The notes: generated by a model not told the origin, from the sequence alone. Positions 1 through 17,181 are shown, numbered from the stretch's first letter. The stretch: 19,786 bases of DNA from Candidatus Latescibacterota bacterium (GCA_963662665.2 CAXXJS010000029.1:1-19786); one strand, 5' to 3'. Numbers and translations: made by a program.

Positions 1-939
1 GATTCTGCCGATGAGAGGGCGTCCAAACAGCCGCGGTAGTCGATACAACATTTGCAGTTCAGCCAGCAATAGTTCGCGATCCAGCTCGCTAATTGGAGTT
101 CGAGAAAGACGGTTGTTTACATAGTCGAGACTGGATTTGTAGATTTCGAACTGTTTCTCGTTTCCGGGGATATCATCCACATGCCATTGGGCAACGCCGA
201 TGTGTCCAAGTAACTTAAGTGCAAAGACCTTCGATTCAGCCAGGGTGCGTGCTCTGAATTTGGTCCGAGGTGCCATCACGCTACCAAGAATATAGAGGTG
301 GTGATAGACTTCGCCAGGTTGGTCGGTCGACCGCCACTGGTAAACTGGGATACGGCGTGCAAGAAACTCAACAGAATCCAGCTGTCGCTCAATTTCCTTG
401 GTTAGTGTGTCTTCGAGCCGAGCAAACGCTCTTCTCCAATGATAAAATCCAGATTCTTGTTCGATCTCGCGTAGTTTATGGTCGTTGAAGCCTGGAAAGT
501 CTTCATCATATCTCGTAATAATTGACGAGCAGGGCTTAGAGGTGCTCTTAACGTCGATGTTTCGGTAGCTAATACTATCATGGTGAACTGCGATCTGCGC
601 CATGAATGGCGCCAAGTTGGCTTTTATTCCTTCTCGTACTGCCTCCGCGAAAGGCACCTCCGCAACCCGTTGATCAAGTAACTTTCGACCCAGTCTAGCT
701 GTCATTTCAGGCGTAACTGCCCTCGCTTTGCTAAGGAGCGAAAGCAATATTGCTCGATCGTTAGGGTTACGGGTCGAATCGACAATAGCCTGAACCACTT
801 GCCCTGCAATGGTTGCTCTGCCAAGGTCCAGCGTCTGCTCGTGGCGAGTCGATTCCGCAGAGAGGACAATCATCGTTGTCACGAGGCTTACAGCGGCACC
901 GGCGATTACCAGTGAGATGTCTTTCTTAAAATTAGTCAT
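1..939 (-). CDS. Hypothetical protein with an N-terminal hydrophobic anchor or signal segment; 3' end lies outside the window (>=313 aa)
   Basis: Hand translation of the minus strand from ATG at 939 gives 313 codons with no stop up to position 1 (MTNFKKDISLVIAGAAVSLVTTMIVLSAESTRHEQTLDLG...RLFGRPLIGRI). A GGAGG RBS lies at 947-951, 7 nt upstream. It is absent from the ORF track, presumably because it has no stop in the window. Spot counts give about 43-53% GC versus about 62-72% in the adjacent gene. No family recognised. Confidence 0.85.
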   Translation of the reverse strand, partial: MTNFKKDISLVIAGAAVSLVTTMIVLSAESTRHEQTLDLGRATIAGQVVQAIVDSTRNPNDRAILLSLLSKARAVTPEMTARLGRKLLDQRVAEVPFAEAVREGIKANLAPFMAQIAVHHDSISYRNIDVKSTSKPCSSIITRYDEDFPGFNDHKLREIEQESGFYHWRRAFARLEDTLTKEIERQLDSVEFLARRIPVYQWRSTDQPGEVYHHLYILGSVMAPRTKFRARTLAESKVFALKLLGHIGVAQWHVDDIPGNEKQFEIYKSSLDYVNNRLSRTPISELDRELLLAELQMLYRLPRLFGRPLIGRI

Positions 940-941
940 CG

Positions 942-1166
942 CTAAGCCTCCATTGTATTCGAAAGATAGGCATTCGGATTGAACCGGCCGTCCTGCACCG
1001 CCTTCGCATACTCGTAGAAACGGATGGCGCCGTGGGAATCGTGCCCGAACAGATTGGAGTCCACCAGATGATCCACCACCGTACGCGCGTCCTCTTTCCG
1101 GCACCCCGCCGCGCGAAACAGCGTATACCCCACCCCGCGCAATACATCGGGCTTGAACTTTGGCAC
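942..1166 (-). pseudogene. Truncated Ldh_2-family (malate/L-lactate/sulfolactate/ureidoglycolate-type) oxidoreductase, N-terminal fragment of 74 aa
   Basis: GTG at 1166 follows an AAGGAG RBS (1172-1177). The sequence PKFKPDVLRGVGYTLFRAAGC...VVDHLVDSNLFGHDSHGAIRF carries the family's N-terminal 'L.G..SHG' motif. Similarity ends at GRFNPNA, followed by 8 unrelated residues and TAG. Intact family members are about 330-360 aa. Confidence 0.85.
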
Positions 1167-1273
1167 CTTAACTCCTTCCGTCAGAGAGCTTAACGCTGTA
1201 CTCGGCATCAGCGCCGAGCCCGGCTCCTGCACAACAAACGATGCGCTTTGTTTTTTTCCAATAATACGGCCGA

Positions 1274-1385: not shown

Positions 1386-1490
1386 CCGCTATGCGTCGTT
1401 GGCGCTTTTTGGGATCCGCGAGGCGTTGAGGAGCGGGCGAGCCGCAAAGGGCAGAAACCCAGGCGGCACGCCATCATTGGAGGTACGGAA

Positions 1491-1519
1491 GCAGGGACAG
1501 GTTCGAAACCTGCCCCTAC
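1491..1519. repeat. GTAG-type REP-like palindrome
   Basis: Minus strand reads GTAGGGGCAGGTTTCGAACCTGTCCCTGC: a GTAG tetranucleotide plus an 11-bp stem (AGGGGCAGGTT/AACCTGTCCCT) with one mismatch, which is the typical REP layout. Confidence 0.65.
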
Positions 1520-1592
1520 GAATGGCGACCAGGGACGGATCCAATGCCGCTCCGACTTTCAGGAGCGACCTTGCGATAATTTCCGCAACGTC

Positions 1593-2597
1593 TCAATCAT
1601 CCGACGCCACGCTGTATGCCTGTCTATGCGCATCGTCCGTTTGTTTCCGGTATGGCGCCGCGGTCATTCCGTGTTCCGACATGCGTAGCTGAAAATACTG
1701 TCGTCCGATTCCGCTTTTTCGGGCTGCACGGGACACGTTTCCATCCGTGCTGACGAGTGCCCTGTGCAGATACTCTTTTGTGAACCGGTCCATGCAGACT
1801 CTTCGGGCGTCCTTGTACGGCAAACCGTAGATGCCGCGGTCCGGTCTCACCTCCGCGTCCTGAACCTCGGTGGGCAGGTCGTCGGGCGTTATAACGTCTC
1901 CCTCGTTAAGCGCCATCGCGCCCGCAATGGTATGAGCCAGTTCCCTGATATTCCCCGGCCAATCATAGCCTTCCAGCAGAGCTCCGGTTTCGGGAGAAAC
2001 CCTGCAGCCTGCTCTTCCAACGTCGCCGAACTGATCCAGGAAATGGGCGATCAGAAGGGGAATGTCGCTTCGACGTTCTCTAAGAGCCGGCAGATGCAAG
2101 TGAATTACCCGGAGACGGTAATAAAGATCGTTTCGAAAACGCCCCGCTTCAACCCCCTGCTTCAGATCTCTGTTTGTCGCGGCGACCACGCGGACACCCG
2201 CCCGTTTCCATCTGTGATCGCCGACCGTTCGATATTCGCCCTCCTGAATCAAGCGCAGCAACTGCCGCTGCAGGGGCTCATCGAGTTCTCCCACTTCGTC
2301 GAAAAAAAGCGTTCCGCCCCGTGCAACCCCCACCAGCCCCGGACGGGACTCCGTGGCGCCGGTAAACGCCCCCCTGACGTGCCCGAACAACTCGCTCCGC
2401 CCCATTTCCCTCGCCAGCATGCCACAGTCCACAATCACAAACGGCGCGCCGGCTCGAGGGCTGCGTTCGTGGACCTCGCGAGCGATGAGTTCCTTCCCTG
2501 TACCGGACTCACCGGTGACGAGAACGGGTAGTTCACTTTCTCCCGCACGCCTCGCAAGTCTGCGCACCGTGCCGAACGCGGGATGAATGCCCACCAT
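1593..2597 (-). CDS. Sigma54-dependent enhancer-binding protein (AAA+ plus Fis-type HTH) with no N-terminal regulatory domain, 334 aa
   Basis: Motifs present: Walker A GESGTGKE, SELFGHVRGAFTGA, Walker B FFDEV, RFRNDLYYRL, WPGNIREL, and HTH GNVSRAARKSGIGR. The start is placed at ATG 2597 because an AGGAGG RBS lies at 2607-2612. The upstream extension to 2738 is not protein-like and runs into the sigma54 promoter. Confidence 0.93.
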   Translation of the reverse strand: MVGIHPAFGTVRRLARRAGESELPVLVTGESGTGKELIAREVHERSPRAGAPFVIVDCGMLAREMGRSELFGHVRGAFTGATESRPGLVGVARGGTLFFDEVGELDEPLQRQLLRLIQEGEYRTVGDHRWKRAGVRVVAATNRDLKQGVEAGRFRNDLYYRLRVIHLHLPALRERRSDIPLLIAHFLDQFGDVGRAGCRVSPETGALLEGYDWPGNIRELAHTIAGAMALNEGDVITPDDLPTEVQDAEVRPDRGIYGLPYKDARRVCMDRFTKEYLHRALVSTDGNVSRAARKSGIGRQYFQLRMSEHGMTAAPYRKQTDDAHRQAYSVASDD

Positions 2598-2733
2598 CGG
2601 ATCGTTCCTCCTTCTGAACCTCTCAATCACATTTCGACACCGGGACCGCCCATCCCGGGCGTGTGAAAGGAGAATTATTTTCAAATTACGGCGAAAAAAC
2701 AATAGGCCCGTGCGCGCTTCAGGGGCTCCATCT

Positions 2734-2749
2734 TGCAATCATCGTACCT
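2734..2749 (-). promoter_or_regulatory. Sigma54 (-24/-12) promoter upstream of the headless activator
   Basis: Minus strand reads AGGTACGATGATTGCA, with exact GG-N10-GC spacing and a close match to TGGCACG-N4-TTGCA. It is correctly oriented, about 140 nt upstream of ATG 2597. Confidence 0.75.
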
Positions 2750-2849
2750 ACATATAAAAAAAACGCCCGGATTTATCACAGGCGACTTAAAAATAACAAC
2801 TTAATTGTACATCCTCAAGACGTGACCGACCTGGTTTCGTCCTTTGGTG

Positions 2850-2867
2850 TGTTTACTTCAGTAGACA
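2850..2867. promoter_or_regulatory. Candidate upstream activator sequence 1 (TGT-N12-ACA palindrome)
   Basis: TGTTTAC-TTCA-GTAGACA has the same TGTnnAC-N4-GTnnACA layout as the sites at 2938 and 2978. It lies about 100-120 bp upstream of the -24 element. Confidence 0.6.
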
Positions 2868-2907
2868 CCCTCCTTACCATGAAAATCGACGTTACGGTAC
2901 CCGCGCG

Positions 2908-2920
2908 TAACCTGTTGATA
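2908..2920 (-). promoter_or_regulatory. Candidate IHF binding site
   Basis: Minus strand TATCAACAGGTTA is a perfect match to WATCAANNNNTTR, with an A/T-rich tract on its 5' side. Confidence 0.6.
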
Positions 2921-2937
2921 CTATTGAAAAAATCGAC

Positions 2938-2995
2938 TGTCAACGCGAGTTGACATGACCCTGGAACACACTCCGCCTGTCAACCGGCGTCAACA
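2938..2995. promoter_or_regulatory. Candidate upstream activator sequences 2 and 3
   Basis: TGTCAAC-GCGA-GTTGACA (2938-2955) has perfect 7-bp arms. TGTCAAC-CGGC-GTCAACA (2978-2995) is imperfect and overlaps the stop codon of the large gene. The two start 40 bp apart. Confidence 0.6.
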
Positions 2996-5900
2996 CGCGT
3001 CCCGTAGGCCGTGACGCTCCAGTTTCTTGTAAAGTCCGGATCGCGTAAGCCCCAGTTCCGATGCCGAACGGGTTATGTTCCCATCGTTCTTGTCGAGAAC
3101 CTGGGAGAGATACCGCTTCTCTACCGACTGCAGAAACACTCTTAAAGTCCCTGACGTCCCTTTGTCACTAACCGCTTCGTTACGCAGTCGTTCCGAGAAC
3201 AATTCCACGTCCAAAACGTCTCCATCTTCCATCAGAGCCACCGCACGGCGTATCTCGTTATCCAGTTGGCGCACATTGCCGGGCCAGTCGACGTTCATCA
3301 GTGCTCTCACGGCCCTCTCCGTGAAACCCGCCACCGCTTTCCCTGCTTCGCGGCAGGCACTACCCAGCAAATGCTCCGCCAACAGGGGAATATCGTCCAC
3401 TCTGTCCCCAAGCGCCGGCATCCTGATTGGAAGCACCTGCAAACGGTAGAATAGGTCCTTCCGAAATGCCCCCTTGGATACCGCTGCCTCCAAATCTGCA
3501 TTCGCTGCTGCTATGATACGGACGTTTACGTTTCGCGGCGTGCTCTCACCCACCCGCCGGATCTCACCGTTCTGAAGCACCCGGAGCAGGCTGGCCTGGA
3601 CTTCGTGCGAGGCATCTGCAACCTCATCGAGAAAAACCGTGCCGCCATGAGCGGTCTCAAACAACCCTGCGCGGTCCGACGCCGCACCGGTGAACGAACC
3701 CTTTTTGTGACCGAATAATTCGCTTTGCAGCAACTCACCCGATAGCGCTCCGCAATTCTGTGACAGAAAAATGCAATCTTTGTGGACGCTGCAATCGTGT
3801 ATGGCGCGAGCCGCCAGTTCCTTGCCCGTTCCTGTTTCTCCCTGTATGAGTACCGTCAAGTCCGTACGCGCCGCCCGCTCTATGAGTCCGTAGACCGCCT
3901 GCATCGCACGACTGGCTCCGACCAGCCCGCCCAGCCCCTTCCTGCCGGAGTCAAGGTGCTCCCTGGACAATGCCATGTCCCTAAACCTGCTTTTCATCCG
4001 GTCCTGAACCATCCCGACGGACAACAGCCCGGCAAGTGCGATCAGGAACCTCCGGTCCGCCTGGGAAACGGCGTTTCCAATACCGCGACGGTCCAGATAC
4101 AATGCTCCCAGCGAACCTGTCTCCCGATCGTATAGCGGTACGCACGCATCCGAGCGGGCATTGAAGTCGAACACGCTCTGCCGTTTCCTGATCCGCTTAC
4201 CAGCCGAAGTGTCCGTGTCAAAAACCGGTTCATTGTTCCCGATTGCACGGTGCACGACACCCCTGTTCAAGTGCTGTGACGCTGAATTTCCGCCGTCGCG
4301 AGACCGAGTCATTCCGATACGCAACGCGCCTGACTGTGCATCCTTAAGTACGACGATCGCCCGTTGCACTCCGGGCACTTTCAAACATCCGTTCAGCGTC
4401 CTGTCCATCAGTGATGTCAGATCGAAGCCTCTACCCAGATTTTCCGCAAGCTCGGAAACGGTCGCTATCCTGTTGACTGTCGGCCGAGACTTTGCCTCGC
4501 CCTCTGATTCAGATCGTTTTTCCGAACGCGCCATCCTGGAAAGCAGATGGGACGCTCTTCGGGCAAAGAAGGGTGTCTGCAGATCCCTCGCTTTGCGTTC
4601 CGCGGTCTCCAGATGCAGACGCGCTGTGTCCAGATTGCCATGCTCAAGGTAAAACCGTCCAGTTGCCAGCACCGAACGAAACCATTCGAATCTCTGGTCT
4701 CCCTGGTTACCCGTCACCGCCCTGTTAAACGCGTCCTCGGCCTCTTCACGACGCTTCGCAACGGCTGACGCTACCCCAATGGAGCGCCAGACGACGGTAG
4801 GCGTTTCGCCAGCCATTTTAGTGCCTGAACGGGCTTTCTCCGCCCAACTCACCGCTTCATCGGCGTTTCCCAGAGTTGCTTGAGCCTCGGCCATCAGGCC
4901 ATATGCCCAGTACAGCTGATCCGCATCCTTCACATGCGACAGAATCTCCACGGCCTGTTTCGCGTGGTTCACCGCGTCCTCTGCATCTCTGTTTTCAAGC
5001 GCAATCGAACCAAGATAAAAGTGGCACGCGCCGTCTGTCGCCGTTCGTCTCCAATCACGGTTTGCCAGATGCTGTGACTGAAAGATCTCTTCGGCACGTT
5101 CGAAGTTGCCGGTTTGAAATGCGGTCACCCCGATCAGGTTCAAATTGCCGATGTTTTCAGCCCGTTCCCCGGCCTTCTTTGACCACTCCAGAGCAGACTC
5201 GAACAGCCTGTGTGCGTCGTCAAGGCGACCGTCCAGGTGCGCAATATAAGCGCCGAAATAGCCGACCCTTGACCTGTTCAATGCGTCACCCGCCTGATCG
5301 AATTGCCTGGCAATAAGCTTAATTTGGACCTTGGCTTCCTTTCGCCTTTCCATCCGCTCATAGAGAGAAGCCAGACACTGCCTCGTTTCACGTTCCTTCT
5401 TTGCCGGTCCCAGTCTGCGGTAGATTGCAATCGCCTCCAGAAATTCACGTTCTGCTTCGTCATACGACCGGGAACGGGCATTGAGGATACCGAGCTGGCA
5501 TAGAACCAGCGCCTTCTCAGCGGGAGTTTCGTCTGAAATCAGCAACCATGCATCTTTCGTCTTTTTCTTTGCTTCCTCGACAAAACCCCGGCAAGACAGG
5601 GCATTGGAATAATCGCACAGAAACCTTACTCTGGATTTGATTCCTTCGACCGGTAACGCACTCAATCCATCGGCTTTAAGACGCGGTTCCGATACGTCCC
5701 TGAACAAGCTCAACGCACGGTCTACGGCGCGTACGCTAAGCGCCTGTTTTCCGGCCTTCATGAGGTACTGATCTGCCTTCTCTACTTGCCCGGATTTCGC
5801 GTGATGGTACGCCAGGTCTTCGACTGCCTGAGGCCCCGATTGGGAATTCAGAATCTCCAGAACTCTGGCGACTTCCCGATGCAAAAGACAACGCCGCCGG

Positions 5901-7828
5901 GCGTCCATGCCATTGTAAATCGCGCGACGCAAAAGCATACTGGAGATTCGATATTCGTACGACGCATTGGCTCCCGTCGGCTTCCGCAATAGTTCCAGAC
6001 GTACGAATTCATCCAGGGTCTCCGCCAGACTCGACTCGTTCTCTCGCGAAACTCCCGCAATCAGATCAAACGAAAAGCCGTTTGTACAGACAGATGCGTA
6101 ATCGAGGACTCGACGCCGCGCAGGGTGAATTGCCCCAAGGCGTCTGCCAATAATCTCCGCCGCACGATCGGGCATCAGATGCGCAGGAATCGAATCCCAC
6201 AGCCACCCACCGTCGCCACCGTTACGAATAACGCCTTCGGCAAACAGAGAATGGACGAATTCGACGATAAATAGAGGACATCCGCCTGTCTCTTCAAAGA
6301 GTTCAGGTTCGACTTCTTCGGGGACCTGCCCTTGGCCGAGGATGGAGGCCGCCAGGCGCGCTGTGTCTGTCCGTGTGAGACATTCCAGGTGGATCCTGTG
6401 AACCCTGTCTGGCCCGCCGTCCTTGAAAAGGCTATCCGTATGTCCGGGCATGGGCGAGTCGTCATCGGCTGCATACGTTACAACAATCATCAGAGGCCAA
6501 TCTTCGCCACCGCTCCGGCACCGCTGCAAGAACCGGACCGTGGATTCATCCGACCGTTGAAGATCCTCAAGACACAGCATGACCGGCCGGATACACCTAA
6601 GCTTTCGCAAGAAATGCCAGATCCCATCCAATGCGTGTTTTGAGTCATTAAACTCGGCGTGATACACGGGCTCCTGCCGATCGACATCCTGGAGCCTGTC
6701 CATCAGCGTCGAGGAGACGTTACGACCTACCCTGCGGCATGTTCCTGACAGCACCCGCATTCCATAGAGTGCCGCATCGCCCTGAATTTCCTGCACCAGA
6801 CGCGACTTGCCCATGCCGACTTGACCGGAAACGAGCGCAATCTGCGACCTGCCCTCGAATGCCTCCGAGACAATTTTCCGCAATGTCGACATTTCCGAGT
6901 GCCTGCCCACAAATAGCGGCTCCTGGAGACGTGGCCCCGTCGGCACCGGCTCGTTGTTCGGTCGCGCACCGTCACTGATGATCGCGTCAATTCCGGCGAG
7001 GAGTTCGCGCGCCGACTGGAATCGATCTTCGGGTTCTTTGGAGAGAAGCTTCATCACCATTGCCAGAACCGGCTTCTCCTGCTTCGTGCCAAGGGCTTGA
7101 AGCGGCCGCGGCGGTTCCCACAGATGCCTCAGGATGACGTCAACCGGACTGTCGCCGGTAAATGGCGGGGCGCCCGCCAAGATTTCGTAAAGGACAATGC
7201 CAAGGGAGTAGAGGTCGGACCGCTGGTCCACACATCTGCCGCGCCCTTGTTCCGGAGACGTATATTCCGTCGTGCCCGTCGCTGGAAGGTCACCGGCCGG
7301 CGAAGCATCACGTGCACGGCTGGAATACGCGAGACCCAGATCCAGTATTGCTGCTTCCATCCGCCTGTCCGCCTCAACAATCATGATGTTCGAGGGTTTC
7401 AGGTCGAGGTGCAGAACTCCCTGATTGTGAATGCAATTCAGTCCGTCGGCAATCTGACGAACCAGCCGCAGGAACTCCAACCCTCGAAACTCCTCCCTCT
7501 TTCTGTTGTCATTTAGCAACTTCGCCAGTGTCTGGCCACCCGTACAATTCATGACAAAATAAGGCCGACCTTCATGCACTCCCCAGGTCTCGGTCCCTGC
7601 GACACGTGGATGTCGAATGCGTGAGCGCACGTGAAATTCCCGCAAAAACCGCCGTCGAGTCTCCACCAGGTTCGCATCCCTTGTCAACACCTTGAGCACG
7701 ACTTCGTCACCGAGGTCCGTATCCCCCACCCTGTAAATCACGCCCACGCCGCTACTGCCGAGGACTTCGAGGATCTCGTACCGCCCGTCAATCATATTTT
7801 CATTTTTCGTTGCTGACATCGTATTCAT
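2990..7828 (-). CDS. Multidomain Ser/Thr kinase - STAND (AAA_16-like) ATPase - TPR - GAF - sigma54 AAA+ - Fis HTH transcriptional activator (~1610 aa)
   Basis: Kinase motifs: GSSGVGVIY, VVLK, HLDLKPSNIM, DLG, GTTEYTSPEQ, SDLYSLG. STAND motifs: FVGRHSEM, GQVGMGKS, LCLEDLQ, TGGCPLFI. An Ala/Leu/Gly-rich helical TPR-like region follows, then GAF-like ACVPLYD...LGALYLD. bEBP motifs: GETGTGKE, SELFGHKKGSFTGA, FLDEV, FRKDLFYRL, WPGNVRQL, and HTH GNITRSASELGLTRSGLYKKL. The start is uncertain (TTG 7837, ATG 7828, ATG 7819) with no clear RBS. Confidence 0.92.
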   Translation of the reverse strand: MNTMSATKNENMIDGRYEILEVLGSSGVGVIYRVGDTDLGDEVVLKVLTRDANLVETRRRFLREFHVRSRIRHPRVAGTETWGVHEGRPYFVMNCTGGQTLAKLLNDNRKREEFRGLEFLRLVRQIADGLNCIHNQGVLHLDLKPSNIMIVEADRRMEAAILDLGLAYSSRARDASPAGDLPATGTTEYTSPEQGRGRCVDQRSDLYSLGIVLYEILAGAPPFTGDSPVDVILRHLWEPPRPLQALGTKQEKPVLAMVMKLLSKEPEDRFQSARELLAGIDAIISDGARPNNEPVPTGPRLQEPLFVGRHSEMSTLRKIVSEAFEGRSQIALVSGQVGMGKSRLVQEIQGDAALYGMRVLSGTCRRVGRNVSSTLMDRLQDVDRQEPVYHAEFNDSKHALDGIWHFLRKLRCIRPVMLCLEDLQRSDESTVRFLQRCRSGGEDWPLMIVVTYAADDDSPMPGHTDSLFKDGGPDRVHRIHLECLTRTDTARLAASILGQGQVPEEVEPELFEETGGCPLFIVEFVHSLFAEGVIRNGGDGGWLWDSIPAHLMPDRAAEIIGRRLGAIHPARRRVLDYASVCTNGFSFDLIAGVSRENESSLAETLDEFVRLELLRKPTGANASYEYRISSMLLRRAIYNGMDARRRCLLHREVARVLEILNSQSGPQAVEDLAYHHAKSGQVEKADQYLMKAGKQALSVRAVDRALSLFRDVSEPRLKADGLSALPVEGIKSRVRFLCDYSNALSCRGFVEEAKKKTKDAWLLISDETPAEKALVLCQLGILNARSRSYDEAEREFLEAIAIYRRLGPAKKERETRQCLASLYERMERRKEAKVQIKLIARQFDQAGDALNRSRVGYFGAYIAHLDGRLDDAHRLFESALEWSKKAGERAENIGNLNLIGVTAFQTGNFERAEEIFQSQHLANRDWRRTATDGACHFYLGSIALENRDAEDAVNHAKQAVEILSHVKDADQLYWAYGLMAEAQATLGNADEAVSWAEKARSGTKMAGETPTVVWRSIGVASAVAKRREEAEDAFNRAVTGNQGDQRFEWFRSVLATGRFYLEHGNLDTARLHLETAERKARDLQTPFFARRASHLLSRMARSEKRSESEGEAKSRPTVNRIATVSELAENLGRGFDLTSLMDRTLNGCLKVPGVQRAIVVLKDAQSGALRIGMTRSRDGGNSASQHLNRGVVHRAIGNNEPVFDTDTSAGKRIRKRQSVFDFNARSDACVPLYDRETGSLGALYLDRRGIGNAVSQADRRFLIALAGLLSVGMVQDRMKSRFRDMALSREHLDSGRKGLGGLVGASRAMQAVYGLIERAARTDLTVLIQGETGTGKELAARAIHDCSVHKDCIFLSQNCGALSGELLQSELFGHKKGSFTGAASDRAGLFETAHGGTVFLDEVADASHEVQASLLRVLQNGEIRRVGESTPRNVNVRIIAAANADLEAAVSKGAFRKDLFYRLQVLPIRMPALGDRVDDIPLLAEHLLGSACREAGKAVAGFTERAVRALMNVDWPGNVRQLDNEIRRAVALMEDGDVLDVELFSERLRNEAVSDKGTSGTLRVFLQSVEKRYLSQVLDKNDGNITRSASELGLTRSGLYKKLERHGLRDAC

Positions 7829-7899
7829 TTCGTTCAAAATAACGGCCGATCCAGAATTCAGGTTTCAGGAACATCGCAGCAAACCACTCCCTCTCACAC

Positions 7900-12192: not shown

Positions 12193-12207
12193 TGGTACGG
12201 TTTTTGC
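12193..12207 (+). promoter_or_regulatory. Sigma54 (-24/-12) promoter for the Omp85-DUF4390-ntrYX cluster
   Basis: TGGTACGGTTTTTGC has GG-N10-GC spacing and is one mismatch from TGGCACG-N4-TTGC. It lies 56 nt upstream of ATG 12264. Confidence 0.8.
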
Positions 12208-12263
12208 GCACTCTGATTCACCGCTCTGAATGTGGTCGACGGATTCCAGCGGAGGTCAGCACG

Positions 12264-13553
12264 ATGTGGCGCACGATTGTCCTTCTCACCCTCCTCTTCG
12301 CCTTTGCGAATACCTACCTGCACGCCCGGGATGCCACGGGATACGTCGTCGAACGAATCGAAGTTCGAGGCAATCACAAAACAAAAGCAGATATCATCCT
12401 TCGGTCCCTTCCGATACACAAGGGTGACCGCCTTACACCCGGCAGACTGGATGCCAGCCGGGAGTCTCTGTACCGCACCCGCCTCTTCCGAACGGTACAC
12501 GTCGCGCCAAAGCCCGGTACGGAACAGGGCAAGGCCGTGCTGGTTGTGTACGTCGATGAGAAACGGTTCGGCGACGTCGGCGTCAGTTTCGAATATACGG
12601 AACTGGACGGATTCGGGCTTGCCGCCGACGCCTATCACGTCAACCTCGGCGGAGAAGGAAAGACCGTAGGCGTGGAGTATTCGCACGGGGAGCGCCTGCA
12701 GCGCTTCGGTTTCAGCTATGCCGACCCCTGGCTCACCAGCGGGTACACGTCGCTTCACGTAAACGCCCTCTTTTCCAGGGCCGACCGCGATATGTACCGC
12801 AGTTCCGACCCAAAAAAGCGCGGCCTGTACGACGTGGACAGAATCGGCGGCTCGGTCGGCCTCGGAAAACCCATCGGGGAGAAGTACCGGCTGGTGGTCC
12901 GTTACGCCCTCGACGAGATTCGCATTAACGACTTCGACGAGCCGGAAGTCTTCATCTCGGGTCCGGAATTCACGCGGGAAATCATCTCGGCCCTCGGCCG
13001 CACGCCGATATCCACCTTCGGCATCGAACTCTACCGGCAGCCGGCTTCCAGGTTCTGGGGCGGCGCGCCGGGATTCGATCTCAACTTCCGAATGGACTTC
13101 GCCCCCGGCGCCCTGGGCACCATCCCAAGCTACCTCCGGTCCAGAGTGGAAGCCTACCGCCATTTTTCCACCTTGCCCGGACAGAGCCTGAGCGTCGGCG
13201 GGCGGGCGGGATTGATCTTTGGTTCGCCGCCGTTCTTCGAGAGGTTCTACCTGGACGGCCAGAATCAACTCAGGGGATTCGAACGGCGCGCAATCGGGCC
13301 CGAGGGCGGTACGGAGTTCGTTTCGATTGAAGGCGTCTACGCCATTGCAACACGACCCATCGGCAGAATCTACTGCTTCGCCGAATGGGCCGCGATTCGC
13401 AGGCCGATCTCGGAGTCTCATCGCCGGGATTCAAACGGTACGTATGGTGTCGGCGCATTGCTGTTTAACAGGGTCGACATCAGCTACGGCTTGAAAAGGG
13501 GCACGCTAATTGTAAAATTCCACCGGTTCGGCGGTATCAATCTGGGCCTGTGA
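12264..13553 (+). CDS. Omp85 (BamA/TamA-superfamily) outer-membrane protein with a single POTRA domain, 429 aa
   Basis: GGAGG RBS precedes ATG 12264. Signal peptide MWRTIVLLTLLFAFANTYLHA, POTRA-like VERIEVRGNHKTKADIILRSL...LVVYVDEK, and barrel motifs NLGGEG, FSYADPW and FYLDGQNQLRGF. Confidence 0.85.
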   Translation: MWRTIVLLTLLFAFANTYLHARDATGYVVERIEVRGNHKTKADIILRSLPIHKGDRLTPGRLDASRESLYRTRLFRTVHVAPKPGTEQGKAVLVVYVDEKRFGDVGVSFEYTELDGFGLAADAYHVNLGGEGKTVGVEYSHGERLQRFGFSYADPWLTSGYTSLHVNALFSRADRDMYRSSDPKKRGLYDVDRIGGSVGLGKPIGEKYRLVVRYALDEIRINDFDEPEVFISGPEFTREIISALGRTPISTFGIELYRQPASRFWGGAPGFDLNFRMDFAPGALGTIPSYLRSRVEAYRHFSTLPGQSLSVGGRAGLIFGSPPFFERFYLDGQNQLRGFERRAIGPEGGTEFVSIEGVYAIATRPIGRIYCFAEWAAIRRPISESHRRDSNGTYGVGALLFNRVDISYGLKRGTLIVKFHRFGGINLGL

Positions 13554-13682
13554 TTCAGGGGGAGCGCCATTGCAACGCGGACAGATCACTCGAGTCCGTT
13601 CCAGGGAACATGCCACCATTCGGCGATGCTTCCACCACGGCCCCCGTTACCCCGATCGCTGAAAACTCACCAATCTTCCGAA

Positions 13683-14309
13683 ATGCATACCCATCGAGGC
13701 ACAGCGGAGGCGAACAGGCGAAAAGTCGGGATTTGCGCTTGCCTCTTTTTTTTTGTGGTATTCCCGGTGCGTTCCGACGCCCGGGACGTCGTCGTCGCCA
13801 AGCGAAATGTTTACCTTCAGGCGGATACGGTAAGACTGAATGTCGAACTGGATTCTCTGTTCTCGCGGCGCGCACTGGACGCGATCGCCTCGGGACTGAT
13901 TACATCCGTGGTCATCGAAATCCGGCTGGATTCGAAACCGCAGTCGAAGGCGAGAGAGTTCGCAGTAGGCCTGCGTCTGGACCACGACATCTGGGAAGGC
14001 CGGTACCAGGTTGTACGCGAAGCGGGGCGCCGGGATACGCTCCAGACCACCGATTTCGACAGTGTCAGCACGTTCTGCTCGACGCTTCACGGGCTGTCGC
14101 TTGGGCCACTGCCGGAAGGGCGAAGTTTCCGGCTGCGTCTTCGCGTTGGCGTCACACCCATTTCCATCGAACAGGAGCAGCGGAGCCGCCGGTGGCTCAA
14201 TGTCCTGCAAAAAGGAAGCCTGTTGGAGCTCTTCTTCTCCCTGGACCGCCCCTCGGAGCGGACGCCGTGGATCGAAATAGGCCGCTATTCGCCGGAGGAT
14301 CTACAATGA
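13683..14309 (+). CDS. DUF4390 (NtrZ-like) exported protein, ~208 aa
   Basis: Hydrophobic N-terminal segment, then ALDAIASGLITSVVIEIRL and LDHDIWEGRYQV, which resemble DUF4390. Its stop overlaps the kinase start (ATGA at 14306-14309). The start is uncertain (13626 or 13683). Confidence 0.7.
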   Translation: MHTHRGTAEANRRKVGICACLFFFVVFPVRSDARDVVVAKRNVYLQADTVRLNVELDSLFSRRALDAIASGLITSVVIEIRLDSKPQSKAREFAVGLRLDHDIWEGRYQVVREAGRRDTLQTTDFDSVSTFCSTLHGLSLGPLPEGRSFRLRLRVGVTPISIEQEQRSRRWLNVLQKGSLLELFFSLDRPSERTPWIEIGRYSPEDLQ

Positions 14310-15802
14310 GATCCCTACCCCTGCGCTGGCGCATCGTCATCGCCATCATCGCCCTGACGCTGGGTACTACGCTGGCATTGTCTCTGCTTGCACAGCATTT
14401 TCTTGAATCCGGCCTGCAGTTGCAGGACAACATCAGCGCAAGCACGGGCCGGGCGCTCAACGACGCAGTCAAACTCGCTCGGGATCACTATGAAGGGCGA
14501 AAGTCCGCACTCACCGACATCGGACAGAATCTGTTCGAATCCGATCTGCCAGGTGAATCCATTCGCACACGAGATCTTCAGCCTATCCGCGCCTTCCTGA
14601 ACCGGCATGGTCTGGATGACGCCCACGTCCGGTTCGCGGATGCGACGGAAATCGCATCGCGCAACCCGCAACCGCCCATAGCACGGCCCGCCGTGCGCAG
14701 GTCAGGCGACGGCGATGCCGCGCTGGAACTGTTCGTGCCGGCCGATCGGACGGGATCCACCCACGAAGCGCTTATCATAACAAGCCAAATGGTCGAGTTG
14801 CATCATGTTGAGCAGGCAGTTCAGGCCCATCAGTACCTTCGCATGATCGGAAGCGACCTTCGGGGTGAGTTTTTCTTCTATTTCCTTGTTGCCACCGTTG
14901 CCCTGCTCCTGCTGGCCTGCCTGACGGGTGTTCGCATCGGCTTCGGCGTCACCCATCCACTGGACGAGCTCGTCAAAGGCACGCGCGAACTGGCCCAGGA
15001 TAATCTGGACTACCGTATACCTCCCGGACGGGACGACGAGATAGGCCTTCTGATCGGATCCTTCAACCGGATGGCGGAAGACCTCACCCAGAACCGCCGA
15101 CAACGTCTGGAGGCCGAAAAAATCGCTGCCTGGCGTGAAATCGCCCGGCGGCTGGCCCACGAAATCAAAAACCCGCTCACTCCGATTCAGCTTACGGTTC
15201 AGCAGATCCGAGACAAATATCAGGGCAACGATCCCACCTACCTGAAGCTGGTTCAGGACTGCACCGAAATTGTTACCGAAGAAGTGGAAAGCATGAGGAA
15301 ACTCGTGCAGGAATTCGCCGATTTCGCCCGCATGCCTTCACTTTCCCTGGGACGTCACAGCCTGAACGGTGTGATTACCGATATCGTGCGACTCTACCCC
15401 GAAGCCGGAATCGCACTTGAACTCGCGCCGAGAATTCCTGATCTGGATCTGGACAGCGAACAGATGCGCCGTGTGTTGATCAATCTGATTGAAAACGGCC
15501 TTGAAGCCACGGGCGCGCAGGGCCGGATCGTCATTCGGACCGAAGATTGCCCGAACGCGGTCAAAGTCCTGGTTGTGGACTCGGGACCGGGCGTGCCCGA
15601 ACGGGATCGGGAGCGAATCTTTCAGCCGCACGTGTCTTCCAAACAAAGCGGCATGGGTATGGGGCTGGCCGAAGTCCGCAGCATCATCGAGAACCACGGC
15701 GGCCAGATCGTGGCGACCAGTGCACGCGGAGGGGGCGCTCAGTTCGAGATTACTTTACCCGTACCCAGGGAACAGGAAAGAATGCCGGAGGAGAGAATAT
15801 GA
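14306..15802 (+). CDS. ntrY: NtrY-like membrane sensor histidine kinase (TM-periplasmic-TM-HAMP-HisKA-HATPase), 498 aa
   Basis: Two hydrophobic segments, HAMP (DDEIGLLIGSFNRM), H-box AAWREIARRLAHEIKNPLTPIQL, N-box NLIENG, and DSGPGV and GMGMGL. The start is ATG 14306 after GGAGG. No PAS domain is apparent. Confidence 0.9.
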   Translation: MRSLPLRWRIVIAIIALTLGTTLALSLLAQHFLESGLQLQDNISASTGRALNDAVKLARDHYEGRKSALTDIGQNLFESDLPGESIRTRDLQPIRAFLNRHGLDDAHVRFADATEIASRNPQPPIARPAVRRSGDGDAALELFVPADRTGSTHEALIITSQMVELHHVEQAVQAHQYLRMIGSDLRGEFFFYFLVATVALLLLACLTGVRIGFGVTHPLDELVKGTRELAQDNLDYRIPPGRDDEIGLLIGSFNRMAEDLTQNRRQRLEAEKIAAWREIARRLAHEIKNPLTPIQLTVQQIRDKYQGNDPTYLKLVQDCTEIVTEEVESMRKLVQEFADFARMPSLSLGRHSLNGVITDIVRLYPEAGIALELAPRIPDLDLDSEQMRRVLINLIENGLEATGAQGRIVIRTEDCPNAVKVLVVDSGPGVPERDRERIFQPHVSSKQSGMGMGLAEVRSIIENHGGQIVATSARGGGAQFEITLPVPREQERMPEERI

Positions 15803-17181
15803 CCGAACCAACCATTCTGGTGGTAGACGACGAACGTAACATACGGCGGTCCCTGGAAATAATCCTTTCGGCCGAAGGCTACCGGGTTGTCTGCGCGGCT
15901 TCCGGCGGTGAAGCTCTGGCCGCGTTGAAATCCGAGTCGCCGCAGGTGGTCCTGCTGGATATCGTACTGCCCGGGACAAACGGAATCGAAATCCTGAAAA
16001 CCGCCCGGCAGAGCTACCCGAACCTGGCAGTCATTATGATTTCAGGCCACGGGACCGTCCACGATGCGGTCGTGGCGACGAAACTGGGCGCGTACGATTT
16101 CCTGGAAAAACCGCTTTCCAGGGAAAAGGTCCTGCTCACCCTCTCCCACGCCCTGGAGAGTATCGAACTGACCGAAGAGAATCGCAATCTGCGCCGAAAG
16201 TTTGAAACACGATTCGAGATGGTGGGCAACAGCAACGCCATCGCTTCGGTACGCGAACAGATCGGGAAGGTCGCGCCAACGAACGGACGCGTACTCATCC
16301 TGGGCGAGAGCGGTACCGGCAAGGAACTGGTTGCCAGGGACATCCACCGAAACAGCAGGCGGTGCGAGGGCCCGTTCGTCAAGGTCAACTGTGCCGCGAT
16401 TCCTGAAGAACTCATTGAAAGCGAACTGTTCGGCAGCGACCGCGGCGCGTTTACGGGCTCGGTGAAAACCCGAGACGGGAAGTTCCTGCTTGCGGACGGC
16501 GGAACGCTTTTCCTGGACGAAATCGGCGATATGAGCCTGAGCGTCCAGGCCAAGGTCTTGCGGGCTCTCGAGCAGGGAGAATTCGAGCGCGTTGGCGGAT
16601 CAAAGACCCTGAGAGTGGATGTAAGGGTGATCGCCGCAACCAACAAGAACCTGCAACAACAGGTCGAGAACGGGGCTTTCCGCGAAGACCTCTACTTCAG
16701 GCTCAATGTCGTGCCCATTACAGCCCCGCCGCTGAGGGATCGAAGAGACGACGTACCCCTGCTCTCCGCGCATTTTCTGAAGGGATATGCCAATGAAAAC
16801 GACTTCCGCGCCAAGACCCTCACGCCCGGCGCGATCGAGGCGCTGAAGAACTACGGCTGGCCGGGCAACATCAGGGAGCTCAAGAACCTGATAGAACGGC
16901 TCTCCATTATGGTCGCTGAAGATACGGTTGACGTGCATCACCTGCCTGGTCTGGACGGACCACAACTCGCCCGGTCCGGCGAAACCCCCGGCGAGGAAAC
17001 GGCGGTCCCAGGCGTCGATTCGGGAAAGAGCCTCCATGAAGTCCGTGAGGCCGTGGAAAGGGCCTACATCTCAGATGCATTGAAAAACAACGCCTGGAAC
17101 GTCACAAGGGCCGCAAGATTGCTGGGTGTTGACCGCACGAATCTCCACAAGAAAATCAAGTACTACAATATCGAACGCTGA
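15799..17181 (+). CDS. ntrX: NtrX-like sigma54-dependent response regulator (REC-AAA+-HTH), 460 aa
   Basis: REC motifs: ILVVDDE, LLDI, MISGHG, FLEKP. AAA+ motifs: GESGTGKE, ESELFGSDRGAFTGS, FLDEI, FREDLYFRL, WPGNIREL. HTH: WNVTRAARLLGVDRTNLHKK. ATGA overlap with the kinase stop and a GGAGGAG RBS. Confidence 0.93.
   Translation: MTEPTILVVDDERNIRRSLEIILSAEGYRVVCAASGGEALAALKSESPQVVLLDIVLPGTNGIEILKTARQSYPNLAVIMISGHGTVHDAVVATKLGAYDFLEKPLSREKVLLTLSHALESIELTEENRNLRRKFETRFEMVGNSNAIASVREQIGKVAPTNGRVLILGESGTGKELVARDIHRNSRRCEGPFVKVNCAAIPEELIESELFGSDRGAFTGSVKTRDGKFLLADGGTLFLDEIGDMSLSVQAKVLRALEQGEFERVGGSKTLRVDVRVIAATNKNLQQQVENGAFREDLYFRLNVVPITAPPLRDRRDDVPLLSAHFLKGYANENDFRAKTLTPGAIEALKNYGWPGNIRELKNLIERLSIMVAEDTVDVHHLPGLDGPQLARSGETPGEETAVPGVDSGKSLHEVREAVERAYISDALKNNAWNVTRAARLLGVDRTNLHKKIKYYNIER

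Follow-up and report, generated by a model that had tools for sequence, protein, structure and literature searches.

A giant kinase-STAND activator of sigma-54 promoters, its 3' enhancer-promoter cassette and a headless activator: a candidate two-step switch in a Candidatus Latescibacterota bacterium

Two genes for sigma-54 activators (bacterial enhancer-binding proteins, bEBPs) lie next to each other on a contig of a Candidatus Latescibacterota bacterium (GCA_963662665.2, CAXXJS010000029.1:1-19786), and the DNA between them resembles an enhancer with its promoter. Does the product of the first gene control the second one, and what would the second one then control? The window, that is, the whole stretch of DNA analysed, is this entire 19.8-kb contig, which belongs to a 4.86-Mb assembly that is 92% complete. 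On its minus strand, a LutC-like gene (10673-10107), a LutB/LdhH-like gene (10041-7900), the gene of a giant activator (7837-2990), a 392-bp spacer and a gene for a protein of 334 amino acids (aa; 2597-1593) follow one another. An original prediction had proposed a two-tier cascade for this locus, with the giant as an NLR-like sensor that switches on the small activator through a sigma-54 promoter, and all the elements it named (giant, dyads, a site like that of the integration host factor (IHF), -24/-12 promoter and second bEBP) were recovered in place on the minus strand by means of open reading frames (ORFs), Pfam and pattern scans (Table 1). Our analysis favours, as a fairly probable interpretation, a two-step switch in which the sensor giant would drive the headless activator via an enhancer-promoter cassette at its own 3' end. 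As judged by comparison, the first tier of this switch appears well supported and the second one plausible.

The giant comprises 1615 aa, with TTG 7837 or ATG 7828 as the start codon. Pfam detects in it Pkinase (residues 20-279, 123.5 bits), AAA_16 (309-445, 71.5 bits against a cut-off of 32.6 bits), TPR_12 and other TPR models (~660-1083), GAF_2 (1139-1274), Sigma54_activat (PF00158; 1305-1471, 224.9 bits), AAA_lid_14 and, as a Fis-type helix-turn-helix (HTH) domain, HTH_8 (1569-1608). An AAA_16 P-loop with Walker A and B motifs followed by a repeat sensor is the STAND (MalT/NLR-like) architecture, and homologues of the giant carry TPR_MalT (PF17874). The Walker motifs of the STAND domain (GxGKS/T, LED/LEN) are kept in 10 full-length relatives, in which the AAA+ motifs are conserved too, and the motifs of a Hanks-type Ser/Thr kinase, VLK, REF, H(L/R)DLKPSN, D(L/M)G and SPE (K/E/D/N/D residues) are kept in 10/10 full-length giants; since the catalytic residues are conserved, the kinase of the giant looks live. 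The sigma-54 contact loop reads GSFTGA, not GAFTGA, and does so in 4/4 full-length giants of the genus, GAFTGA being found in six sister-genus giants. GSFTGA is reported as a natural variant that is expected to stay functional and that occurs in two Desulfovibrio activators with known regulons (PMC4641369). The N-terminal part of the giant reaches 238.9 bits on TIGR03903 (cut-off 705.75 bits) and the protein 298 bits on the NorR model, under its 476-bit cut-off. The giant architecture is common in databases: of 7,999 candidates scored in a protein search, 3,366 reached E <= 1e-20. The full domain set recurs in nearly all of the best 120, and the names given at source are only 'sigma 54-interacting transcriptional regulator' or 'protein kinase'.

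The spacer extends from the stop codon of the giant gene (2992-2990) to the ATG at 2597, and it contains three matches to the dyad pattern TGTNNACNNNNGTNNACA (TGTnnAC-N4-GTnnACA), 0.00 being expected from 200 shuffles. Only five matches are present in the 4.86-Mb assembly, and the two that lie elsewhere have no sigma-54-like promoter nearby. Dyad 1 overlaps the stop codon of the giant gene and starts ~-247 from the GG of the -24 element, dyad 2 is at -207 and dyad 3 at -119, which corresponds to ~-263, -223 and -135 relative to a transcription start site predicted from the -24/-12 match at ~2723, in agreement with the 2722-2724 forecast originally. The -24/-12 element, GGTACGATGATTGCA, is the sole exact match to GGNACGNNNNTTGCW in the window (2748-2734), and a search for a sigma-70-like promoter within the spacer gave no match. 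An exact copy of the IHF consensus WATCAANNNNTTR is placed between dyads 2 and 3, and a weaker one, between dyad 3 and the promoter, matches the consensus exactly in one locus of the alignment (L013); IHF-like matches are not rare (nine with up to one mismatch vs 7.3 expected), and the genome contains three HU/IHF-family genes. The spacer also holds a hairpin followed by eight T's (-9.7 kcal/mol, z -2.3), absent from the earlier description, which ends ~8 nt before the -24 element and probably terminates the transcript of the giant gene. Dyad 2 was flagged as terminator-like in the window as well, but the T-run behind it is not conserved, and it was discarded as the giant's terminator. The fold of the 5' untranslated region (z +0.5) indicates no structure.

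Comparison within the genus began with 10 loci, two more being added, and the spacer was compared over 12 intact loci. Giant and small gene are adjacent in 9 of the 10 loci examined first, and the large protein is 61-76% identical across the genus. The promoter, with the consensus GGYACRANNNTTGC, is present in 12/12 loci with 9 of its 16 columns invariant (conservation 0.90). Dyad 2 is retained at -207/-206 in all 12 loci (specified columns 0.95 vs free columns 0.83), dyad 3 at -119/-118 in 11 (0.95 vs 0.64) and dyad 1, searched with a relaxed pattern, at -247 to -236 in seven. Mean top-base frequency in the 12-locus alignment is 0.81-0.90 for the spacer features vs 0.69 for the rest of the spacer, the exact IHF-like site having a mean conservation of 0.90 and the weaker element 0.77. 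The consensus fold of the hairpin over the 12 loci has -11.8 kcal/mol, with compensatory changes in 2 of 13 pairs. When all intact loci with a giant, or a truncated form of it, upstream of the small gene are considered, the promoter is found in 19/19. In one genome (G004), large and small genes are on separate contigs, and it is the small gene that has kept dyads, hairpin and promoter; a ~170-bp repeat between giant and cassette, shared by both contig pieces (L022/L059), suggests an insertion there. An IS66 transposase element cuts the small gene near residue 10 in G001 (L037, 2873-5256), and a ~195-bp insert splits dyad 1 in G005 (L019). Mobile or repeated DNA has thus struck the spacer region repeatedly in these three genomes.

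A related cassette is found in a sister family, genus g2, where 7/7 loci with a full-length giant have three dyads, of the type TGCATCC-N4-GGATGCA, at -230/-208/-128, an AT-rich block where the IHF-like site sits in the genus of the window, a terminator in the same place as the window hairpin (11-bp stem and U7, -17.5 kcal/mol, z -3.6) and the promoter TGGCACGGATCTTGCA. The cargo of the g2 cassette is, in this order, a ~60-aa ORF with an acidic tail (PFPDDDDDWDDFD), taken as a precursor peptide, a radical-SAM/SPASM protein, the small activator and a UvrD-like helicase. The radical-SAM/SPASM protein resembles SCIFF and ranthipeptide maturases, scoring under their cut-offs, and no orthologue of it was found in the genome of the window. 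Among 12 paralogous giants examined (39-42% identical), 11 have a sigma-54-like promoter 240-260 nt past the stop codon, and the twelfth has a transposase there; these cassettes possess their own dyads at ~-119 and -243, a hairpin at -30 to -46, and as cargo either a peptide and a radical-SAM maturase or TPR proteins. Matches to the dyad in closed g2 genomes are almost confined to the spacer (all three sites in G018, both listed matches in G041). Far from any giant, G040 and G052 each carry another group of three dyads, arranged in the same way and with a sigma-54 promoter of its own, so that the dyads would act in trans. The locus in the window is, judged by these comparisons, a derived form of a cassette that is widespread in the family and consists of giant, three dyads, hairpin, sigma-54 promoter and cargo; in this genus the headless activator appears to be the only cargo left. 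In G052 the second cluster (L041, 8517-8760) precedes a 1,975-aa surface protein with Fn3/Ig repeats, and in G040 (L042, 8629-8853) unknown genes and a FlgD_ig-domain protein. It was also noticed that the hairpin GCACTTGA...TCAAGTGC is nearly identical in four sister-genus paralogous cassettes (L023, L048-L050), ~-46 from the -24 element, all of whose enhancer dyads differ; since a plain terminator need not keep its sequence, this hairpin may also be a protein site.

The small activator starts nine bases past AGGAGG, and its translation contains the motifs GESGTGKE (Walker A), GAFTGA and LFFDEV (Walker B). PF00158 covers residues 2-167 (E 4.3e-59; 199.4 bits, cut-off 20.2 bits), followed by AAA_lid_14 and by a C-terminal HTH of the Fis type, HTH_8, at residues 274-307 (25.9 bits, cut-off 22 bits). 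In Pfam searches the protein consists of AAA+ with its lid and HTH_8 alone, with no N-terminal domain, and the claim of a second bEBP with an intact GAFTGA and no sensory domain was thus borne out. It is not PspF, since it scores 204.8 bits on TIGR02974 (cut-off 443.55 bits) and its neighbours are the giant and an Ldh_2 gene; no PspA- or HrpV-like gene was found beside it in the neighbourhood. Across 13 same-genus genomes the protein shows 84-90% identity, against 51-62% in the rest of the order, and its orthologues (E <= 1e-95) are present in 41 of 168 genomes of a phylum sample, all inside the order, and in 0/115 outside it.

It could be the case that the giant and the small protein assemble into a single mixed AAA+ ring, as HrpR/HrpS or FleQ/FleT do, with the small protein as a co-activator or modulator without a regulon of its own. 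Tandem activator genes recur in the order, since a short activator in genus g3 and an activator of the Y_Y_Y type in genus g6 stand directly upstream of the small-gene orthologue, and no separate target of the small protein has come to light. We nonetheless hold a mixed ring to be unlikely, because the AAA+ domains of giant and small protein are just 39-41% identical, the hairpin and a separate sigma-54 promoter divide their genes, and the small protein has a conserved HTH of its own and persists in giant-free genomes. A pair of the HrpR/HrpS type was rejected on the first two of these grounds and on the 1,300 extra N-terminal residues of the partner. In g3 (L028, L029), the short activator (a 370-aa frame with AAA+ from residue 45) itself follows a gene for the alpha subunit of succinyl-CoA ligase.

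Which of the two proteins would bind the dyads can be approached by comparing the recognition region of each HTH with the sequence of the dyads. In the giants, the recognition region LTRSGLYKKLERHGL pairs with GTTGACA dyads and MTRAGLQKKINRLGL with GGATGCA, and among the paralogues SRNGLQKMM goes with GTATACA in eight loci, TRVGLHKKINR with TGTAWAY in two, and ARISLYRKINR with TGTATCA. The same helix is thus accompanied by the same half-site and a different helix by a different half-site, over five specificity classes that include paralogues in one genome. The recognition region of the small protein, on the other hand, is G(I/L)GRQYFQxRM(S/A)E in 28/28 loci of both families. As the dyad co-varies with the HTH of the giant and not with the near-invariant HTH of the small protein, the giant most likely binds the dyads. 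The evidence for this pairing is all comparative and comes from related genomes, and a repressor or a different activator could instead use the dyads, the link to the giant being then a matter of shared cassette ancestry. The change of dyad with giant HTH in five classes, together with a number, spacing and distance of sites (three, ~-135 to -263) that fit an activator enhancer, makes such a third factor quite improbable. The original prediction also envisaged positive feedback, and possibly bistability, if the small activator bound the same sites, and in a stronger version of this idea the small activator would itself bind the dyads and autoregulate, the giant having no direct part at the promoter. 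Autoregulated activators with conserved inverted repeats have been described, e.g. DVU2894 (PMC4641369), and within the genus one recognition position of the small protein is L, H or Y in loci that differ in dyad 2 as well. However, its recognition region is the same in both genera with unrelated dyads (GTTGACA vs GGATGCA), paralogous cassettes without the small gene have the same dyad-promoter geometry, and the first expression from a strictly activator-dependent promoter is impossible by the activator's own action, so that autoregulation in place of the giant has very little chance of being correct. Feedback through shared sites is unlikely for the reason that the small-protein HTH does not track the dyads.

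In the two-step switch that we favour, the HTH of the giant would bind the three dyads in the 250 bp past its own stop codon, and the hairpin with its T-run would end the giant's transcript just before the -24/-12 promoter. The sensor part (kinase, STAND, TPR and GAF) would release the AAA+ ring, the enhancer-bound giant opening the sigma-54 closed complex; three dimers could give one hexamer, as for NorR at three sites, and AT-rich, IHF-like bends could help DNA looping. The 334-aa activator would then be transcribed and, as it has no regulatory domain, would be active once made. Because its HTH recognition region is different and nearly invariant, it would act on other sigma-54 promoters. 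Observed are the sequences and domains, their conservation and geometry, and the co-variation of HTH with dyad; that the giant binds the dyads, that the promoter needs sigma-54, that the hairpin terminates, that the small protein is constitutively active and that it has a regulon are all predictions from sequence.

Several observations weigh against this scheme. The compared genomes are kin and not independent samples, so that the counts given above describe a pattern and do not amount to a statistical test. The genus hairpin is modest, with scant co-variation, and the exact IHF-like site is not between enhancer and promoter. Among the same-genus orthologues of the giant, nine of 13 are of ~905-970 aa and have no kinase and STAND parts, and their cassette is retained; the description as an NLR-like sensor, which suits the domains of the giant in the window, therefore fails for most of its genus. 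In a quick tree these short giants form one clade (Shimodaira-Hasegawa-like approximate likelihood-ratio test, SH-aLRT, 94), with the full-length sister-genus proteins outside, which suggests that the kinase-STAND part was lost once. Moreover, the small activator occurs in genomes without a detected giant, in other genera another activator precedes it (the short one in g3, the Y_Y_Y type in g6), and when there is no giant upstream a promoter candidate within 1.3 kb was detected in one of eight loci. Since it is retained without the giant, and since 7/8 such loci have no sigma-54-like promoter, the small activator exists in its own right and is not tied to the first tier everywhere.

The gene for sigma-54 itself is a further difficulty, since rpoN (PF04552, PF04963) was not found in the 92%-complete assembly. 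It is present in 20/20 relatives searched, and synteny with the rpoN locus of a relative lasts only until contig C66 ends, 2.7 kb before the gene would be reached; because the synteny stops at a contig end, the absence is likely an assembly gap. The missing rpoN, together with the lack at the window locus of the sister-genus peptide and maturase genes, could be taken to mean that the -24/-12 element is a non-working relic of a lost peptide operon and that the small gene is expressed by read-through or from an unseen sigma-70 promoter, a reading that is very hard to credit given the persistence of the element, the dyads and their distances in the 12 genus loci, the T-run hairpin that separates giant gene and promoter, and the absence of a sigma-70-like match from the spacer.

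Finally, a search for promoters under the control of the small activator, which covered the neighbouring genes, the genome-wide list of -24/-12 elements and two motifs, yielded no target. The cascade originally predicted is thus supported by comparison in its first tier, with a conserved unit of gene, dyads and promoter and co-variation of HTH and dyad, and gains nothing for its second. The genome contains about a dozen activator genes and, in a genome-wide list with dyads, 111 candidate -24/-12 promoters. As possible targets, the Ldh_2 gene and the lutC-like gene were rejected, each having a conserved sigma-70-like element upstream (TTGATT-17-TATCGT and TTGACC-17-TACCTT, respectively) and no -24/-12 element. 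Three sigma-54-like promoters (G000 C47:21808, C28:10794 and C11:7641) have the motif TGCCAWWWTGGCA 110-135 nt upstream; this motif was rejected as a site of the small activator since it occurs in 14/14 same-genus genomes, including one without the small gene, and in 1 of 21 sister-genus genomes, where the gene is present. The motif RAACTGNNAGTTY was likewise rejected, being enriched in the genus regardless of the small gene and not enriched in the sister genus.

Some observations on these motifs and on other activators were made along with this search. One of the TGCCAWWWTGGCA promoters precedes a gene whose product starts, by eye, like a small heat-shock protein. The RAACTGNNAGTTY dyad has 20+19 matches in G000 vs 2+0 for a control pattern, and three copies of it lie upstream of one sigma-54-like promoter (C23:57688). 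On contig C49 of G000 (69438-71982, plus strand), two short frames of sigma-54 activators (401 and 350 aa) lie side by side, with a sigma-54-like element behind them at 72215, a possible tandem like HrpR/HrpS. On contig C22 (22355-22850, plus strand), the AAA+ domain of a sigma-54 activator, matched from profile position 2 onward, is divided between two frames, with a sigma-54-like element at 21870; this is a frameshift or a broken gene.

As to the rest of the locus, the region 1416-3300 is contained in a single 14.9-kb contig. The Ldh_2 gene (malate/lactate dehydrogenase family), which lies downstream of the small activator in 9/9 relatives examined, is represented in the window by just its first ~75 codons (945-1172, minus strand), and an unrelated 368-aa ORF without a Pfam match comes after this stub (1-1104, minus strand). 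The truncation may stem from strain variation or from a join made in assembly, contigs branching at ~970 and at 1100-1520. A second sigma-54-like element, TGGTACGGTTTTTGCG, is located at 12193-12208 on the plus strand and is conserved in the loci of two relatives; it directly precedes an Omp85/POTRA gene, which is followed by genes for a HAMP histidine kinase (13550-15802) and a receiver-type sigma-54 activator (15547-17181), and these together are probably a separate, self-contained sigma-54 unit. An Rfam scan of the window gave no match.

Table 1. Positions of the giant gene, the elements of the spacer and the small gene in the window
Feature	Position	Strand	Evidence
Giant one-component sigma-54 activator	2990..7837	-	ORF, translation, Pfam, motif conservation
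Dyad 1, TGTTGAC-GCCG-GTTGACA (gene strand)	2978..2995	.	Pattern match
Dyad 2, TGTCAAC-TCGC-GTTGACA, perfect palindrome	2938..2955	.	Pattern match
IHF-like site TATCAACAGGTTA, between dyads 2 and 3	2908..2920	-	Exact consensus match
Dyad 3, TGTCTAC-TGAA-GTAAACA	2850..2867	.	Pattern match
Second, weaker IHF-like/AT-rich element, dyad 3 to promoter	2794..2806	-	One mismatch to consensus
Terminator-like hairpin (2784-2764) and 8-T run (2763-2756)	2756..2784	-	Folding
Sigma-54 type -24/-12 promoter AGGTACGATGATTGCA; GG 2748-2747, GC 2736-2735	2734..2749	-	Pattern match
Headless sigma-54 activator, 334 aa	1593..2597	-	ORF, translation, Pfam

If the two-step switch is true, the giants would constitute a large uncharacterised class of one-component sigma-54 regulators in which the 3' flank of each gene directly reveals the target promoter, and the pairs of HTH and dyad would provide a ready-made specificity code. 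STAND/NLR-type sensing and Hanks kinases would be linked to sigma-54 transcription and to radical-SAM peptide operons, and the locus would be a minimal two-gene relay in which to study a sensor-less activator controlled purely by synthesis. Beyond this, a wider scheme may be put forward tentatively, as a conjecture that is more doubtful than probable. The giants might act in the cytoplasm as NLR-like receptors, with TPR/STAND sensing the radical-SAM-modified peptide whose gene lies just downstream, so that the cassettes would perform a sigma-54-dependent peptide autoinduction in which every paralogue has an enhancer code of its own. In the genus of the window, peptide and maturase would have been lost and the circuit rewired, so that the sensor, often without its kinase-STAND half, would set the level of a constitutively active headless activator that commands a regulon conserved throughout the order.

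The pairing was said originally to match no described system, and a literature search indeed found no publication on kinase-STAND-TPR-GAF sigma-54 activators, on the 3' cassette or on the link to radical-SAM peptides; the logic of one sigma-54 activator controlling another is, on the other hand, already known. Two-tier sigma-54 cascades include NtrC, nifLA and NifA in Klebsiella, FlrA and flrBC in Vibrio, and FleQ and fleSR in Pseudomonas. In these cascades, as in the one proposed here, one activator turns on the sigma-54 promoter of the gene of a second activator. Their second tier is signal-controlled (NifL, FlrB, FleS) and their first tier is of the receiver-domain or FleQ type, whereas at the window locus the first tier is a kinase-STAND-TPR-GAF giant with a putative enhancer in its own 3' flank and the second one is sensor-less. 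FlrA is reported to bind upstream of flrBC (PMC4641369). In Myxococcus xanthus, Nla28 has been described to regulate activator genes directly (PMC9765219), so that here too activators control the genes of other activators via sigma-54 promoters. Those activators, however, are of the two-component receiver type and belong to a developmental network, and the available text of that work describes no fixed cassette of gene, enhancer and promoter.

Other likenesses concern the individual proteins. PspF and HrpR/HrpS are headless activators, and they share with the small activator the presence of AAA+ and HTH alone, an intact GAFTGA, and an activity that depends on the quantity of the protein or on a trans-acting partner; the small activator differs from HrpR/HrpS in that the partner gene is no close paralogue in the same transcript. 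In Desulfovibrio vulgaris, four of 37 activators have been reported to be without an N-terminal domain, and they were proposed to be partner-dependent or members of cascades (PMC4641369). The output half of the giant resembles NorR, a GAF-AAA+-HTH protein with three dyad sites upstream of one sigma-54 promoter, and at the norVW promoter the three enhancer sites are reported to be all needed (PMC2831303). Unlike NorR, the giant has ~1,100 extra residues (kinase, STAND, TPR) before GAF, another dyad sequence, and its sites downstream of its own gene. The input half is comparable to the TOMM kinase/cyclase fusion (TIGR03903) and to STAND regulators of the MalT type, with a kinase-AAA_16-TPR input near a modified-peptide cluster, and the difference lies in the output, which is a sigma-54 AAA+-HTH instead of a cyclase or a LuxR-type HTH. 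The regulatory logic is thus a known one, and the new part is an uncharacterised family of regulators in which enhancer, terminator and promoter stay attached to the regulator gene.

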